This document shows, in pieces, positions 23,267 to 32,200 of a stretch of DNA of 64,000 nt (the first letter of the stretch is position 1; every line of letters starts with the position of its first letter). Position numbers: made by a program. Location of the stretch: contig CBDANQ010000059.1 of assembly GCA_965197725.1 (NCBI GenBank), positions 64,001-128,000 of the forward strand, in the 5' to 3' direction. The DNA comes from Longimicrobiales bacterium (GTDB taxonomy: Bacteria > Gemmatimonadota > Gemmatimonadetes > Longimicrobiales > Gaopeijiaceae).

Positions 23267-26200
23267 GAAGGGTCTGGCCGATACCGCGCTCAAGACCGCG
23301 GACGCGGGCTATCTCACGCGCCGCCTGGTCGACGTCGCTCAGGATGTGACGGTCATGACCGACGATTGCGGGACCATTCTCGGCCTGGAGATGACCGCGC
23401 TGAAGGAAGGTGAGGACATCATCGAGCCGCTCGCGGACCGCATCGTCGGAAACGTGGCGCTCGAGGATGTCTACGACCCGATCGATGGTGAGCTTCTGGT
23501 CGAGGGGGGAGCGCTCATTCTCGAGGACACGGCCGATGCCATCGAGGACGCGGGTCTCCAGATGGTGAAGATTCGTTCTGTGCTCACCTGTGAGGCGAAG
23601 CGCGGTACGTGCAAGATGTGCTACGGGCGCAACCTCGCGACGATGCAGATGGTCGACACCGGTGAGGCGGTAGGTATTCTCGCGGCGCAGTCGATCGGTG
23701 AGCCGGGCACGCAGCTCACGCTGCGGACGTTCCACATCGGTGGTACGGCATCCCGCATCGCAGCGCAGACGCAGCGCAAGTCGAAGATCAAAGGCATCGT
23801 GGGCCTCGAGCGTGTCACCACGGTCGTGACGCCCGACCGCGAGCGGATCATTACTTCTCGGGAAGGACAGATCCTTCTCAAGACCGGGGACGGTGCTGTC
23901 CGGAGCCGCCTCTCCGTTCCCTACGGCGCGACGCTGGCCGTGGTGGAGGCGCAAGAGATCGAGGGTGGGGATCTGCTCTTCAGCTGGGATCCGTACTCGG
24001 AGCCGATCGTCGCAGACTCGGCCGGTGTCATCAAGTTCGTCGACATCGTCGACGAGCAGACGATGCGCGAGGAGTTGGACGAGTCCACGGGTCGGCGCCA
24101 GATGACGATCATCGAGGATCGCGAGAAGAAGCTCCACCCGACCATTCAGATCCGTAAGGACACCACGAAGCGGGAGAAGCTTCGCGAGTTCATCATCCCG
24201 GTCGGTGCGCAGCTCACTGTCCACGATGGAGACGAGATCAAGAAGGGTGACACCGTCGCCAAGATCAGCCGCGAGGTCTACAAGACACGCGACATCACGG
24301 GTGGTCTGCCCCGCGTCGCCGAGCTCTTCGAGGCCAGGCGACCGAAAGATCCGGCGGTCATCACCGAGATCGACGGTGAGATCAGCTTCGGCGACATCAA
24401 GCGCGGCAAGCGTGAGGTCCACGTCACGCCGGAAACCGGTGAGCTGAGGACGTATCCTGTTCCAGTCGGCAAGCACATGCGAGTGCACGAGGGCGACCGT
24501 GTCCGGGCGGGTGACCGTCTGAGCGAGGGGCCGATCAATCCGCACGACATCCTGCGCATCAAGGGGCCGCGGGCCGTTCAGGAGTACCTGCTGAACGAGA
24601 TCCAGGAGGTGTACAGGCTCCAGGGCGTCAAGATCAACGACAAGCACATCGGCGTCATCGTTCGTCAGATGCTCCAGAAGGTGCGCGTCACCGATGCGGG
24701 CGAGACCCAGCTGCTCGAGGGCGAGAACGTCGACCGGGTGGAGTTCCGCACCGTGAACCAGAAAGCGATCGAGGAGGGCACGAAACCGGCCCGTTCCGAG
24801 CCGCTTCTGCTCGGGATCACCAAGGCGAGCCTCACGACAGAGTCGTTCATCTCGGCGGCCTCGTTCCAGGAGACCACCAGGGTGCTCACGGACGCCGCGG
24901 TACGCGGTGCGCTCGACGATCTCTCCGGTCTCAAGGAGAACATCATCATTGGTCACCTGATCCCGGCCGGTACGGGTGCGCACCGCTATCAGGCGGTGGA
25001 GTTCATGGTCGAGCAGGCGTTCTACGACGAGGAGATCATCCCGTTGGGCGAGCCCGGGGAGCTGGTGGCTGGGCTGGGGGTGGGCGAGGAGTTCGATTAG
25101 ACGGGTCCCGGGCGGGCCGCTGGTCTCCGTGATCATGCCCTGCCGAAACGGAATGCCCTTCGTGGGTCACGCCGTTGAGCGCGTCCTGGCTCAGAAAGCG
25201 CCCCTGGAACTTCTGTTCGTGAATGTGGGCTCCACCGACGGCAGCCTGCAGGAGGTCTCTTCGATCGACGACGATCGAATCCGAGTGATCGAGGCACCGG
25301 CCGGCACGGCTCCCGGGCGTGCGCGCAACCTCGCGGCCCGGCAGGCCCATGGTGACGTACTGGCCTTCGCGGACGCCGACGATCTCTGGCGGCCGGACAA
25401 GCTCGAGCGCCAACTGCGCCTCAGGTCGGAATCCGGCGCGGCGCTCGTATACAGCGACTGCCGGGTGATCGACGGTGCCGGCCGGTTGCTCGGGGCCTAC
25501 CTCAGCCGTCATCGTCCGACGGAGGGGACCGTCACGGACCGGCTCCTCGAGGAGAACTTCGTCCCGCTCTCGACGGTTCTCGTGGACCGCACGGCGTTCG
25601 AGGGTGTGGGCGGGTTCCATGAGGGCTTCCGTGTAGCGTGCGACTACCTGTTCGCGATTCGTCTCTCGCTTCGCGCCGCCTTCGCCCTCGATCCAGAGAC
25701 TCTGGTGGACTACAGAATCCACGACCGAAATCTGACAGCGGACTTCCGGCGCACTTATGCCGAGAATGTCCGTGTCTTCGACCTGTTGCTGGCGGACGAC
25801 GTGGCGAGCTTCGGGGCCGCGTGCCTCCGGAGGGGTCGCAGCCTCGTCCTCTGGCGCTGGGCCATCCGGGAGGGGATGGCTGGGCCGGCGGCATGGACTG
25901 AGGCCGGGCAGCGAGCCGGCGAGGCGCTCCGGTCGGTCGGCCCCGCGACGGGCGTCGCCACGCTTGCCTCTGCGGTCCGCGGCGGCCTGCGCGGCCTTCC
26001 GCTCCGCATCCGGATGGCTCGCGCCCGAGGAAACACCAGGTGAAGAAGGTTCGCTTCAGCGTCGATGGCGCCGTTGTGGAGGTCGAGATCGACGATCCGG
26101 CGGAGGCTGAACGCGTCGCCGCGCTCTTCCCGACGTACGTCGTGGAGCTGGAGGACTCCGAACCGCAGGCTTTGATTTCGGTGCAGACCGATGCGGATGG

Positions 26201-29200: not shown

Positions 29201-32200
29201 TTCAAGCCTCGTCCCGGTCGCTGAGGGCCGCGGCCTCGGGGCCGCGAAGCTCACTACGATATAGGCCTCCGGAGGGCCGCTGTCGCTAACGGACCACTAC
29301 CCCGAACCCGTTGACACCCCCAGTACCCCCCTTACCTTTCTATGCTCTAGTCGGACCAGCGATTCGCAACGACAGCGAAGAGCCAAATACGACGCGCCGA
29401 CAGGCGCGTTTTTTTCACGATCAGAGGGCAAATGCCGACGATCAACCAGCTCGTGAGGAAGGGCCGCAAGGCTGTGCACAAGAAGAACAAAGCGCCGGCC
29501 CTTCAGCAGAACCCGCAGAAGCGCGGTGTCTGCACTCGCGTGTATACGACGACTCCGAAGAAGCCGAACTCGGCGCTTCGGAAAGTTGCTCGTGTGCGGC
29601 TCACGAGCGGGTACGAGGTCACCGCGTACATCGGGGGTGAGGGACACAACCTCCAGGAGCACTCGATCGTGCTCATCCGTGGCGGCCGGGTGAAGGACCT
29701 TCCGGGTGTTCGGTACCACATCATCCGTGGTACGCTGGATACGTCAGGGGTCGGCGATCGTCGCCAGGGACGCTCCAAATACGGGGCCAAACGGCCCAAA
29801 TAAGGCAAGAATAGATGAGCCGTCGTTCCCGGGCTGAAAAGAGGGAGACGCCTCCCGATCCGCGCTTCGAGTCGCGCACCGTCACCAAGTTCATCAACAA
29901 CTTGATGCTGGGCGGCAAGAAGTCGGTCGCCGAGAAGATCTTCTACGACGCGGTCGAGATTCTCGAGCAGCGAACCGGTCAGCCGGGGGTGCAGGTGTTC
30001 GAGCAGGCGCTGACCAACGCCAAACCGGCGCTCGAGGTGAAGAGCCGCCGCGTCGGTGGCGCGACGTACCAGGTGCCGATCGAGGTTCGACCGGAGCGCC
30101 GCGCCGCGTTGGCGACGCGCTGGCTGATTTCATACGCGCGCGGCCGTTCGGAAAAGAGTATGTCCGAGCGGCTCGCCGCGGAGCTTCTCGCCGCGAGCCG
30201 CGGTGAGGGCACGACGATCAAGAAGAAGGACGACACGCACCGGATGGCTGAGGCGAACAAGGCGTTCGCGCACTACCGCTGGTAGCGATCGACGAATAGG
30301 ACCGCGCCGCCGGCATGGGGTGTAAAGACAACTTGGGACGCGATGGCCCTCGTTCTTCGGGAACCGGGGCCCTCTCCGATCAAAGGAGCGCGGACGACTG
30401 TGGGCCCTCAGGGGCCGCAGCTGCAGGAGCCGCGCTCCTTTTTTACGCCCCATGACGCAACGACGGACGGAATGCACAGGGACAGAGAAGGACTTAGATA
30501 GATGCCCAGGAAGACGCCACTGCCGCAGCTCCGCAACATCGGCATCATGGCGCACATCGATGCCGGTAAGACCACGACCACCGAGCGCATCCTGTTCTAC
30601 ACGGGACGCGTGCATCGCGTGGGCGAGGTGCACGATGGTGCTGCGACCATGGACTGGATGGAGCAGGAGCAGGAGCGGGGGATCACGATTACCTCCGCAG
30701 CCACGACGGCTCATTGGCTGCGCAACGATACTGACTACCGAATTAACATTATCGACACTCCCGGTCACGTGGATTTCACGGCCGAGGTCGAACGGTCGCT
30801 GCGCGTTCTCGACGCTGCGGTGGCCGTTTTTTGCGCGGTGGGTGGTGTGGAGCCGCAGTCCGAGACGGTTTGGCGCCAGGCGGACCGTTACACGGTGCCG
30901 CGCATCGCTTTCGTCAACAAGATGGACCGCGTCGGCGCTGACTTCATGAACGTCGTCCGCATGATGAGCGAGCGGCTGGGTGCGAACGCGCATCCGGTGC
31001 AGTACCCGCTCGGCGAGGGTGAGCTCTTTACGGGGGTCGTCGACATCGTCGAGCGGAAGGCGATCATCTACGAAGACGAGATGGGCTCGAAGTTCTCCGA
31101 AGGTCAAGTGCCCGATGGACTCAAGGACCAGGTCGAGGAGCTCCGGCACACACTTCTCGAGGCCGCGATCGAGCACGACGACGAGCTCATCGAGAAGTAC
31201 CTGGCGGGTGAGAAGCTGTCGACCGATGAGTTCCGCCACGCGATCCGCGCGGCGACCATCAAGGGCGTTCTCTTCCCCGTCTTCTGCGGTTCGGCCTTCA
31301 AGAACAAAGGCGTACAAACCCTGCTCGACGGCGTAATCGACTATCTGCCGTCGCCGGTGGACGTCCCTGCCATTCAGGGTCACCTGCCGCACCATGATGA
31401 GACCTTCGAAAGCCGTGAGGCGAGCGACGACGCACCCTTCGCGGCTTTGGCGTTTAAGATCGCGACCGACCCCTACGTCGGTAAGCTGACATTTTTCCGC
31501 GTCTATTCGGGTTCGCTTCCCTCCGGCAGCTACGTGTACAACGCCACGAAAGATCGGCGCGAGCGCGTGGGCCGCATTCTGCAGATGCACGCCAACAAGC
31601 GTGAGGAGCGGGACGAAGTGTTCGCGGGTGACATCGCCGCGGCGATCGGCCTAAAACAGGTGAAGACCGGCGACACTCTGTGCATCGAAACCCACCCGAT
31701 CATCCTAGAGGCGATGAGCTTCCCGGAGCCGGTGATCGCGGTCGCGATCGAGCCGAAAACGAGGGCCGACCAGGACAAGCTCACGAACGGGCTGGTCAAG
31801 CTCGCCGACGAGGATCCGACGTTCCGCGTTTTCACCGATCCGGAGACGAACCAGACGATCATCTCGGGCATGGGTGAGCTCCACCTCGAGATCATCGTTG
31901 ATCGTCTCAAGCGTGAGTTTGGTGTGGAGGCCAACATCGGCCGTCCGCAGGTAGCGTACCGCGAGACGATCCGCAACCGTGCCGAGAAAGTGGAAGGCAG
32001 GTTCGTCCGCCAGACCGGTGGGCGCGGTCAATACGGTCATGTGGTCATCAACCTCGAGCCCGGGGCGCCCGGTTCGGGCTTCATTTTCGAGGACAAGATC
32101 CGCGGTGGCGCGATCCCGCGAGAGTACATCGGTTCCGTCGAGGCGGGAATCCGTGCCGCCCTCGACTCGGGTGTACTCGCTGGTTATCCGGTCATCGACG

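Follow-up and report, generated by a model that had tools for sequence, protein, structure and literature searches.

A candidate leader-guided peptide-modification cassette with a twin-arginine-type precursor between rpoC and rpsL of a Longimicrobiales bacterium

Results

The window analysed is a 64,000-nt stretch of one contig of a Longimicrobiales genome. As the initial annotation described, the space between rpoC and rpsL is occupied by six open reading frames on the forward strand, coding for a GT2 glycosyltransferase, an HprK-like kinase, a PF14907 nucleotidyltransferase, a PqqD-type protein, a PRMT-like methyltransferase and an 89-aa peptide (Table 1). Successive genes, from the glycosyltransferase to the peptide, overlap by 4, 13, 1, 4 and 4 nt. 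The peptide ATG forms an ATGA overlap with the methyltransferase stop, an arrangement seen again in nine related loci, and is preceded by GGGAG 8 nt upstream.

Table 1. Features of the insert between rpoC and rpsL, in window positions
Feature	Position	Strand	Basis
GT2 glycosyltransferase	25129..26043	+	PF10111 82.6 bits, PF00535 73.7 bits
HprK-like P-loop kinase	26040..26876	+	TIGR04352 44.2 bits, PF07475 23.9 bits
62-nt left terminal fragment of an IS5/IS1182-type insertion sequence	26854..26915	+	at CTAG site
PF14907 nucleotidyltransferase	26864..27964	+	PF14907 57.5 bits (cut-off 31.2)
PqqD-type peptide chaperone (RRE)	27964..28230	+	PF05402 47 bits
PRMT-like SAM methyltransferase, shortened, 243 aa	28227..28958	+	Methyltransf_25 and PrmA matches
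Precursor peptide, 89 aa	28955..29224	+	family search, ATGA overlap with methyltransferase stop
Twin-arginine-type motif S5-R-K-E-F-L-K-K12	28967..28990	+	family conservation
Putative chaperone-binding motif Y19-A-A-P22-V-V24-S-T-L27, within the hydrophobic region	29009..29035	+	conservation, complex model
Predicted signal-peptidase site A33-S-G35 and candidate acceptor Ser40	29051..29074	+	both inferred
Met/Gly repeat core, residues 42-71	29078..29167	+	sequence
Conserved tail ...NLPDAPWFKPRPGR	29168..29221	+	25-row alignment

The HprK-like protein stays below the cut-offs of both models that match it (33.3 for PF07475, 200 for TIGR04352), and an alignment with 21 relatives shows H95, G113, G115, K116, G127 and D133 to be invariant. 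TIGR04352 (HprK-related kinase A) is its top NCBIfam match, and the PqqD-type protein matches five models weakly, TIGR04353 (PqqD family chaperone) among them. These two models define the HPr-rel-A system, of which the cassette had been regarded as a branch; since both proteins score below the cut-offs (44.2 against 200 and 21.8 against 35), they are not members by the curators' thresholds. In the nucleotidyltransferase, G74 and D93 are invariant among 18 relatives, while D91, D147, H195 and D209 are kept in at least 90% of them.

The glycosyltransferase is 84% identical to the one in the same gap of a genome of the same genus (G367) and 77% identical to that of locus L122, and no relative of it was found among the 87 other cassette loci searched. 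Its linkage is confined to the host's own clade (L122, G367), and a role as a component of the family is not supported. The start codon is uncertain (GTG 25129 or ATG 25135); the previously proposed start at 25153 lies within the conserved N-terminal strand. G367 retains a native ATG and a 118-nt spacer, both of which are missing here.

The full-length relatives of the methyltransferase resemble eukaryote-type PRMTs (PRMT6, CARM1, PRMT1): one aligns with PRMT6 over residues 2-282 (E 3e-24), PF22528 (PRMT_C) matches relatives, and the longer ones carry a C-terminal PqqD-like domain. That the copy in this genome is short had been noticed before; we trace this to an in-frame deletion that removes 78 aa of the barrel, as judged against the relatives at L121 and L122 (82% and 77% identical). 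The Rossmann part is modelled with confidence, and residues 137-165 and 213-243 have pLDDT below 50. In the PRMT substrate loop only the first acidic pair, E102 and D103, is invariant. Because the second acidic residue is not conserved and Arg is absent from 22 of 89 peptide cores, methylation of core Arg cannot be general.

A third lesion lies at the kinase/nucleotidyltransferase junction, where about 110 nt present in L122 are replaced by the insertion-sequence fragment. This segment is ruled out as native cassette DNA: it has 40 matches in the genome, 38 of them with the exact 54-nt core, its contig depth in the sequencing run is about 224 against about 6, and a full copy of the element codes for a transposase (DUF772 and DDE_Tnp_1). 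The fragment supplies the final 6 codons and stop of the kinase gene and the first 18 codons of the nucleotidyltransferase gene, whose relatives align from residue 19 onwards only. With these three lesions, one or more of the enzymes may no longer work, and it is possible, if rather less than probable, that the insert is a decaying remnant in which the peptide may still be produced while at least one of the glycosyltransferase, nucleotidyltransferase and methyltransferase is inactive. The low-confidence model around the methyltransferase junction is consistent with decay, as is the state of other genomes: in G367 everything from kinase to peptide is deleted except the tail codons, and in G364 rpoC directly adjoins rpsL. 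Against decay, all six frames are open and coupled, the catalytic motifs (kinase P-loop, nucleotidyltransferase Asp residues) are intact, the Rossmann half of the methyltransferase is well modelled, and the sequence is unchanged in contigs of two runs, which come from one sample, the one that probably yielded the genome.

The peptide belongs to a genuine family, as proposed earlier: 24 relatives of 67-90 aa were found at E <= 0.01 among 50 candidates, with conserved leader and tail. The plan of the leader was counted over 89 distinct family sequences, the Pro being a residue that the motif search itself demanded. The twin-arginine pair is RR in 74, RK in 13 and KR in 2, and [RK][RK]xF[LIVMF] is present in 85. 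The first position of the YxxPxV motif is Tyr in 85, and lies 13 residues after the pair in 86. An AxA-like triplet occupies Y+14 to Y+16 in 81 sequences and is followed by Gln in 63. Core positions 1-6 contain Ser or Thr in 82 peptides (7 have neither), and in 71 the first such residue is at position 3, 4 or 5; Ser40 of our peptide is conserved in at least 90% of close relatives. Beyond this point the cores of relatives are Met-rich, His/Lys-rich or Pro/Gly-rich; 36 of the 89 have at least four Met and 21 at least three His, and many are poor in both. The tail is Pro-rich in 77 sequences, with PW in 54, and over 25 alignment rows P81 never varies, while W82, P85 and P87 are each kept in at least 90%. 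Signal peptides are usually less conserved than the exported part, and here the reverse holds (pairwise identity 0.50 in the leader against 0.34 in the exported part).

Among solved structures, the profile of the PqqD family finds LppB, the chaperone of the LPP system, as its best match (9x8z_B, E 1e-4), followed by PqqD and by the lasso chaperones TfuB1 and TbiB1. N34 is invariant in the alignment and D73 is kept in 13 of 15 sequences, as counted from alignment blocks; they align with N33 and the Tyr-binding D70 of LppB. The complex score of PqqD and leader, which had been considered weak, is 0.63 with our own alignments as input, against 0.02 for the best of three controls; 116 of 157 solved complexes attain this mark, as do 2 of 215 mismatched pairs. 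At least 98% of contacts recur between runs, with partner pLDDT of at least 66. In the model YAAPVVSTL lies on the third strand of PqqD, peptide residues 20-27 pairing with PqqD residues 29-37. The result may stem from likeness to the solved chaperone-leader complexes 9x8z, 6jx3 and 5v1v.

The leader was formerly said to mimic a Tat signal; we think that it probably functions as a Tat signal and bears the chaperone-binding motif as well. The genome encodes TatC, two TatA/B genes and signal peptidase I. The uncharged stretch of the leader (median 16 residues, mean hydropathy 1.17) may be compared with the 19 Tat-motif matches of this genome, whose hydropathy is mostly 0.8-1.7 and of which about 15 are plausible as Tat signals. 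Only Tat models among the curated ones touch family peptides; TIGR01409 gives 8.5-13.7 bits in those it touches, all below its cut-off of 16.7, and the peptide of this locus, with its RK pair, has TIGR02811 as its sole curated match (E 0.15).

The sub-threshold TIGR01409 scores would also fit a leader that serves chaperone binding only, its Tat likeness being due to chance, with trimming by an unlinked protease and a peptide that stays in the cytoplasm or leaves by another route. Chaperone binding alone would explain the YxxPxV part, and a search of this genome with the leader profile found no other Tat signal (next match E 0.28), so the leader is a specialised sequence. We nevertheless consider this alternative unlikely. 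The Tat consensus is S/T-R-R-x-F-L-K, and it is at these positions that residues ahead of the Tyr are conserved (R 98%, R 84%, F 96% and L 94% in 86 sequences), also in peptides under six other phylum labels; the frequency of the AxA-like triplet argues in the same direction. Nor are a protease and an exporter conserved near the cassette: the flanks of 21 loci, with 153 ORFs, gave no S24/S26 peptidase and a single ABC exporter. That exporter, adjacent to the cassette at L029, resembles LppD of the LPP system and speaks for the alternative. For a leader that is a Tat signal, a grip of the chaperone on the hydrophobic region could compete with Tat. TorD, DmsD and NapD are small cytoplasmic proteins that bind twin-arginine signal peptides before export; their fold is unrelated to that of PqqD, and they serve cofactor-containing enzymes instead of short modified peptides.

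Family peptides occur in 17 of the 401 sampled genomes of the phylum (judged from 21 raw matches), each time with an HprK-like gene. All four enzymes adjoin the peptide in 11 of the 18 loci L025-L042, and the leader is matched at E <= 0.01 in 56 of 67 loci reached via the methyltransferase. Contrary to what had been believed, the system is not specific to Gemmatimonadota: methyltransferase relatives with PqqD, HprK-like proteins and Tat-type leader peptides are also present in MAGs labelled Planctomycetota, Nitrospinota, Nitrospiraceae, Pseudomonadota, KSB1 and Poribacteria, with G+C of 0.32 to 0.69. There the cassette sits within polysaccharide loci (GT4, Wzy_C, Poly_export, GNVR/Wzz, CpsB).

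Discussion

Our data retain the core of the initial interpretation, the peptide as the best candidate substrate of the neighbouring enzymes, while the phylum limit, HPr-rel-A membership, the glycosyltransferase as a family component and the wording of a mimic are not supported. The substrate role is favoured by the constant company of the HprK-like gene, the recurrent ATGA overlap and the chaperone-leader model. We think it on balance rather probable that the five genes from kinase to peptide constitute a cassette for leader-guided peptide modification, combined with Tat export and related to the pathway that makes linear polyphosphorylated peptides (LPP) in Bacillota.

The LPP genes are lppA/K/B/S/D/N (Popov et al., Nat Commun 2026, PMC13381572). 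Because LPP is the closest characterised system, the earlier statement that no chemistry is known has to be amended: its kinase polyphosphorylates core Ser3 of precursors of the form YxxPxVLxHQxIxFETxxS, which are cut after that Thr (PMC13381572). Both systems lack a lasso cyclase and have the PqqD-type chaperone as a discrete protein, alongside an HprK-like kinase and an uncharacterised nucleotidyltransferase; LppB is the best solved match of our PqqD. In both, the N-terminus of the precursor is conserved and its C-terminus variable, the leader bears YxxPxV (the motif given for LPP and lasso leaders is [Y/W]xxPx[L/V/I/F/A]; PMC13381572), and the core has a Ser at about its third residue. Cleavage, which is predicted for our family, falls 15-16 residues past the Tyr and is assigned to an enzyme of the type I signal-peptidase kind. 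The S3T and S3Y variants of LppA are not phosphorylated (PMC13381572), yet some members of our family have Thr at the equivalent place, which counts against the phosphorylation proposed here. LPP clusters, too, are reported within capsule loci (PMC13381572). The present cassette differs in that it lacks a SipW-like LppS and an MsbA-like LppD, has a PRMT-like methyltransferase in addition, which often ends in a PqqD-like part of its own, and codes for Met/His/Gly/Pro-rich cores with the tail PW..PPPG. It is found in Gemmatimonadota and further Gram-negative phyla; LPP, by contrast, is called 'restricted to the Bacillota' (PMC13381572). A twin-arginine motif stands 13 residues ahead of the Tyr, while the LPP motif as quoted in that paper begins at the Tyr, without RR, which further argues against a leader for chaperone binding only.

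Paeninodin and pseudomycoidin, lasso peptides that are phosphorylated or phosphoglycosylated, likewise have a homologue of HPr kinase, a nucleotidyltransferase and a B1 protein of the PqqD type; there the kinase phosphorylates a precursor Ser and the nucleotidyltransferase attaches hexose to the phosphate (PMC8498205). In contrast to these, our cassette has neither macrolactam cyclase nor B2 protease, and most of its peptides have Arg, Pro or Gly as their last residue rather than the C-terminal Ser that is the target there. Bufferins and oxazolins, periplasmic copper binders, would share with our peptides a general export signal as the leader of a modified peptide, which is termed 'highly unusual' for bacterial RiPPs; their partner protein has been suggested to keep the signal masked for as long as modification goes on (PMC12452194). 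Their signal is of the Sec and not the Tat type (the words 'Tat' and 'twin-arginine' are absent from that paper's text), and their MNIO/DUF692 enzymes, acting on Cys, are unrelated to those described here.

A rival view, in which the peptide goes unmodified and is a Met/His-rich metal binder of the periplasm, the enzymes acting elsewhere, e.g. on polysaccharide or another protein, would suit the Met and His content of part of the cores and the polysaccharide and capsule settings of the cassette and of LPP, but is very unlikely given that PqqD-type proteins bind peptides, that in the model the leader occupies the canonical groove, whose contact residues are conserved, that the peptide start is coupled to the methyltransferase stop, that the leader is better conserved than the exported part, and that many cores are poor in both residues.

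The modification cassette is read here as an LPP-like pathway that would dispense with a dedicated peptidase and exporter, use Tat and signal peptidase I instead, and add a PRMT-like enzyme. According to the model, PqqD would grip the YxxPxV stretch of the precursor. By analogy with LPP, the kinase would then phosphorylate a Ser or Thr three to five residues beyond the leader-core junction; the PF14907 nucleotidyltransferase, where present, may build on the phosphate as in pseudomycoidin, and the PRMT-like enzyme may add methyl groups. The twin-arginine motif, the mildly hydrophobic stretch, the AxA-like site and a cassette without peptidase or exporter gene suggest that the precursor would leave through the Tat translocon and be cut by the housekeeping signal peptidase I. 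In this pathway a general twin-arginine export signal seems to serve also as the handle by which modifying enzymes grip their substrate. If this reading is true, what results outside the cytoplasm would be a phosphopeptide that is short, disordered and Met/His/Gly/Pro-rich and that may bind metal.

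The Insert between rpoC and rpsL

The six open reading frames that the initial annotation had placed between rpoC and rpsL are indeed present, all of them on the + strand. From the glycosyltransferase (GT2) to the peptide the successive genes overlap by 4, 13, 1, 4 and 4 nt; the peptide ATG and the methyltransferase stop codon form the sequence ATGA, with a GGGAG 8 nt upstream of that ATG.

Features of the rpoC–rpsL interval, in window coordinates
Feature	Position	Strand	Remarks
End of rpoC	25100		
Site of the absent rpoC–GT2 spacer	25098–25140		118 nt absent compared with G367
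GT2 glycosyltransferase	to 26043	+	PF10111, 82.6 bits
HprK-like P-loop protein	26040–26876	+	PF07475, 23.9 bits (cut-off 33.3); TIGR04352, 44.2 bits (cut-off 200)
IS end fragment	26854–26915		62 nt; left inverted-repeat end of an IS5/IS1182-type element, inserted at CTAG
Nucleotidyltransferase	26864–27964	+	PF14907, 57.5 bits (cut-off 31.2)
PqqD	27964–28230	+	PF05402, 47 bits
SAM methyltransferase	28227–28958	+	243 aa; Methyltransf_25 and PrmA matches
Peptide	28955–29224	+	89 aa; no family above any cut-off
TTGACA...TATGCT pair	29305–29431		upstream of rpsL
GC-rich hairpin and T-run	29391–29410		only about 20 nt ahead of the rpsL start codon
rpsL	29432		

The gap between these two housekeeping genes has been used repeatedly. 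The order rpoC–kinase–PqqD–methyltransferase–peptide–rpsL occurs at four loci of relatives (L055, L056, L084 and L093), the order methyltransferase–peptide–rpsL in the sampled genome G159, and the full order of the window, GT2 included, in the close metagenomic relative L122, with the right half only in L121. Within the genus of the window, rpoC lies directly ahead of rpsL in G364, while G367 retains the GT2 gene (84% identical) and lacks the whole stretch that begins with the kinase start and ends inside the peptide gene. Behind the intact GT2 gene of G367 (locus L049, 1171–1287) a frame is found that consists of the family tail codons ...PEAPWFKPPPSGR, followed by a stop; this tail frame is the relic of a roughly 3-kb deletion that took out the kinase, the genes behind it and most of the peptide gene. 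The glycosyltransferase was rejected as a component of the cassette family, since it was found at none of the 87 other loci searched.

A scan for sigma-70 promoters between 24900 and 29500 yielded no sites, and the three terminator-like sites of the same interval are no more than shuffled sequences give. G364 and G367 share both the TTGACA...TATGCT pair and the hairpin ahead of rpsL, and this conservation is suggestive of a regulatory leader for the rpsL operon.

Lesions in the Window's Copy

Compared with its relatives the window's cassette carries three lesions, and nonetheless all frames are open. One of them is the IS fragment. The element is represented by about 38 near-identical copies across the window's own genome (G000), with a repeat length of about 1 kb or more by BLAST, and the transposase encoded by a complete copy has DUF772 and DDE_Tnp_1 domains; in the window only the end fragment is found, and the copies on contigs C29 and C56 stop at about the same point. 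The fragment stands in place of about 110 nt of cassette DNA, and therefore the last 6 codons of the kinase and the first 18 of the nucleotidyltransferase are IS-derived. The methyltransferase has suffered a 78-aa in-frame deletion within the PRMT barrel; in its structure model the Rossmann half is confident and residues 137–165 and 213–243 are below pLDDT 50. Finally, the spacer between rpoC and GT2, with the rpoC hairpin and the GT2 ATG, is absent compared with G367, and because of this absence the insert may be read through from rpoBC. The same sequence recurs unchanged in contigs of two sequencing runs (X1 and X2), which represent one sample, probably the source of the genome itself, so that their agreement checks only the assembler.

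A link between the RK motif of the window's peptide and its short methyltransferase was considered and rejected: L121 combines RK with a longer methyltransferase, and L031 combines RR with a methyltransferase reading frame of 247 aa.

The Peptide Family and Its Linkage to the Enzymes

A search of a large protein collection gave 24 relatives of the peptide (67–90 aa, E ≤ 0.01) among 50 candidates, two of them with a divergent C-terminus, probably caused by a frameshift; among solved chains the peptide profile had no match at E ≤ 10. The family profile matched 21 of 401 genomes sampled evenly from the phylum, and 17 of these were accepted after reading the loci. Two of the profile matches fall on Tat signals of other proteins, one an MsrP-type enzyme and one 220 aa long, and the accepted 17 leave out G095 and the unpublished G097. 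The HprK-like protein matched 23 genomes of this sample, and every one of the 17 with an accepted peptide is among them; in G093, an additional genome with this protein, the gene lies at a contig end.

At 11 of the 18 relative loci L025–L042 the kinase, nucleotidyltransferase, PqqD and methyltransferase all adjoin the peptide, and at three more loci three of the four enzymes do. Among the others, the contig of L035 ends after the methyltransferase, L037 has one and L042 two of the four enzymes, and L039, which has none, looks like a degenerate second copy. Nine loci of this set show the ATGA-type overlap of methyltransferase and peptide.

Several loci carry peculiarities of their own. Two different precursor genes stand side by side in three genomes (L041/L110, L078 and L117), one of them Met/Gly-rich and the other different, e.g., an Asn/Gly repeat; L078 also has a single Asn_synthase with GATase domains, some 2 kb away from its cassette. 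A sub-family of cores (L041, 7998–8291; L054, 7017–7487) shares, behind the junction, the Cys motif ..MMM.[TF/L]CDYFP..C.., which hints at a disulfide or a further modification. In the planctomycetal locus L112 (7137–7613) a family member of 159 aa carries, behind its Tat-type leader and Met-rich stretch, a C-terminal Peptidase_S74, the self-cleaving 'chaperone of endosialidase' domain (PF13884, 45.9 bits). Downstream of the peptide in L025, L028, L031 and L033, all of family f4, there are genes of the types Pyr_redox_2, VTT/DedA, DUF547, GT2 and DUF2064 (all five in L025, subsets in the other three), in linkage or in mere synteny.

The initial annotation had called the family Gemmatimonadota-specific, which proved too narrow. 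The methyltransferase alignment was used to scan species-representative genomes and retrieved 67 loci, 56 of them with a leader-profile match at E ≤ 0.01. Fourteen of the 67 are labelled as other phyla than Gemmatimonadota and two only as 'uncultured bacterium', and in nine of these 16 (L058, L078, L081, L082, L109, L111, L112, L113 and L117) the cassette is accompanied by a peptide whose leader follows the same plan. The family thus extends beyond Gemmatimonadota. The G+C content of the peptide loci without a Gemmatimonadota label spans 0.32–0.69, which argues, for the low-G+C loci, against simple mis-binning. PF14907 is present in the cassette of seven of the 11 annotated loci from other phyla, and such cassettes sit among polysaccharide genes (GT4, Wzy_C, Poly_export/SLBB, GNVR/Wzz and CpsB).

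Leader Geometry and the Probable Tat Signal

Pattern-based candidates from the 87 loci and 25 proteins numbered 97; six judged unrelated by eye and two frameshifted ones were removed, leaving 89 distinct peptides. Their leaders follow a fixed plan. The basic pair is RR in 74, RK in 13 and KR in 2, with [RK][RK]xF[LIVMF] present in 85/89, and the distance from this pair to the aromatic residue of YxxPx[VLI] (Tyr 85, Phe 3, Trp 1) is exactly 13 residues in 86/89. An AxA-like triplet occupies positions Y+14 to Y+16 in 81 peptides, followed by Gln in 63, and the first Ser/Thr of the core stands at position 3, 4 or 5 in 26, 28 and 17 peptides, respectively (71/89). The window's peptide reads S-R-K-E-F-L-K, with Y19, P22 and V24 and a Ser at predicted core position 5. 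What follows the leader is of low complexity (Pro 18.6%, Gly 15.4%, Met 7.3%), with at least four Met in 36/89, at least three His in 21/89 and a Pro-rich tail in 77/89. Pairwise identity is 0.50 for the 31-residue leader versus 0.34 for the aligned cores (86 sequences).

The Tat consensus is S/T-R-R-x-F-L-K near the N-terminus, and the positions conserved ahead of the leader Tyr are those of this consensus. The uncharged stretch of the leader has a median length of 16 residues and a hydropathy of 1.17; among 19 motif matches in G000, about 15 of which are plausible Tat signals, the hydropathy is mostly 0.8–1.7. The genome encodes the necessary machinery, namely TatC (206.7 bits), two TatA/B proteins (71.8 and 61.4 bits) and a signal peptidase I (Peptidase_S26, 167.5 bits). 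Among curated models only Tat models touch the family peptides, TIGR02811 at E 0.007–0.23 and TIGR01409 at 8.5–13.7 bits in four of the 19 peptides scanned, never reaching the cut-off of 16.7 bits; the window's peptide has no TIGR01409 match, and likewise none was obtained for the MsrP control. A search of G000 with the leader profile found no other signal. This result speaks against a Tat signal, as do the TIGR01409 scores and the RK pair of the window's peptide. Neither an S24/S26 peptidase (153 annotated flanking ORFs of 21 loci; window, rpoC to rpsL) nor, outside L029 with its adjacent ABC_membrane + ABC_tran gene, an ABC exporter (the same ORFs; the window) was found near the cassette. 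The flanking ORFs come from a crude gene caller with a GC3 filter, used for the flanks only, which gave nothing for L041 and some wrong-strand ORFs inside cassettes. On balance, the leader probably directs export through the Tat pathway.

PqqD and the Putative Modifying Enzymes

The profile of 15 PqqD proteins found its best solved match in LppB, the chaperone of the linear polyphosphorylated peptides (LPP) of Bacillota (9x8z chain B, E 1e-4), followed by PqqD itself and the lasso chaperones TfuB1 and TbiB1. Two LppB residues named in PMC13381572, N33 and the Tyr-binding D70, align with the invariant N34 and with D73 (13/15 by our count) of the window-type PqqD. When the PqqD alignment was folded with residues 1–45 of the peptide alignment, the complex scored 0.63, compared with 0.02 for the best of three controls; for comparison, 116 of 157 solved complexes and two of 215 mismatched pairs attain this mark. 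Three runs had at least 98% of contacts in common, with a partner pLDDT of at least 66. The tightest modelled contacts join peptide residues 20–27 (AAPVVSTL) to PqqD 29–37 and residue 24 to PqqD 77 and 80, and in the model they are those of the usual chaperone groove. As similar complexes have already been solved and the alignments are our own, the result speaks for likeness to a known binding mode and not for binding itself.

In the kinase, the P-loop residues G113, G115 and K116 as well as H95 and D133 are invariant in 21 relatives. A true HPr kinase was rejected, the best solved HprK/P match having an E-value of 0.073. In the nucleotidyltransferase, G74 and D93 are the same in all of 18 relatives and D91 and D147 in nearly all. 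The enzyme has no solved relative by sequence, and by tblastn it is absent from the rpoC-type loci and from those of the order PqqD–methyltransferase–peptide–HprK.

The full-length methyltransferases of the relatives (~385 aa) are PRMT homologues, one of them matching PRMT6 at E 3e-24 over residues 2–282; PF22528 is found in two of the 10 annotated Gemmatimonadota loci and in eight of the 11 from other phyla. Their last ~70 residues (L025–L041, our alignment A5) resemble PqqD or a winged helix, with PF05402 matches in 4/10 (best E 3e-4) and a profile–profile probability of 70% (E 3.9e-5). The window's clade lacks this end, which would serve as a second module for peptide binding. In the PRMT substrate loop E102 and D103 are invariant and the second acidic position varies. 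There is no Arg in 22 of the 89 cores, and the only conserved Arg residues of the family are those of the Tat motif. A bolder side-branch of our reading is that the PRMT-like enzyme would methylate the twin arginines themselves and thereby gate export.

Relation to Known Peptide Systems

A bufferin-type cluster was rejected, there being no MNIO enzyme, and a lasso cluster likewise, with no Asn-synthase-like cyclase or transglutaminase-like B2 protease in the window or in 10 Gemmatimonadota loci. The membership in the HPr-rel-A system proposed in the initial annotation does not hold either, TIGR04352 scoring 44.2 against a cut-off of 200 and TIGR04353 21.8 against 35.

The closest likeness is to LPP. 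According to Popov et al. 2026 (PMC13381572), the core set of this system comprises a SipW-like signal peptidase I, the chaperone LppB, the HprK-like LppK, the uncharacterised NTP transferase LppN and an MsbA-like pump; LPP precursors carry YxxPxVLxHQxIxFETxxS and are cut after that Thr, and LppK adds several phosphates to Ser3 of the core. The same text places the Bacilli clusters among polysaccharide genes and states that LPP and paeninodins are restricted to Bacillota; it makes no mention of Tat, twin-arginine, methyltransferase or Gemmatimonad. Measured against these precursors, the geometry of our family agrees within 1–2 residues, with the Tyr, a cleavage site (predicted here) 15–16 residues on and a Ser/Thr about three residues into the core.

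The cassette shares with LPP the YxxPxV leader with a Ser/Thr shortly after the predicted cleavage site, a discrete PqqD-type chaperone as the counterpart of LppB, and an HprK-like kinase as that of LppK, likened through the family profile and the P-loop rather than through LppK itself. The PF14907 nucleotidyltransferase is the counterpart of LppN, which we take to belong to PF14907. In contrast to LPP, the cassette is without a SipW-like leader peptidase (LppS) and, the ABC gene of L029 excepted, without an MsbA-like exporter (LppD). It is LPP-like, combines a Tat-type leader with a PRMT-like enzyme and is widespread in Gram-negative phyla. The window's own contributions are the methyltransferase, the fixed geometry of the leader and the modelled complex. 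The literature searched, Tat and RiPP themes included, holds no description of such a system.

We tentatively put forward, as a reading with somewhat less than an even chance of being right, that this is a widespread, unpublished class of Gram-negative modified peptides with a working Tat leader. The PqqD-type chaperone would hold the hydrophobic region of the twin-arginine signal in a manner akin to the Tat proofreading chaperones, while the kinase, with or without the nucleotidyltransferase, and the PRMT-like methyltransferase would decorate the peptide; Tat and signal peptidase I would then do the work for which the Bacillota system has an exporter and a leader peptidase of its own.

If this reading is true, LPP, published in 2026 as confined to Bacillota, would have relatives across Gram-negative phyla, which borrow the Tat pathway and signal peptidase of the cell for leader removal and export. 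In them the Sec-signal bufferins (PMC12452194) would have a Tat counterpart for the first time. The fixed geometry (RR, 13 residues, YxxPxV, 14–16 residues, AxA) supplies a search pattern for unannotated precursors. For the PqqD-type protein, holding Tat signals as a chaperone would be a second function, and a bacterial PRMT homologue would enter the chemistry of peptide natural products.
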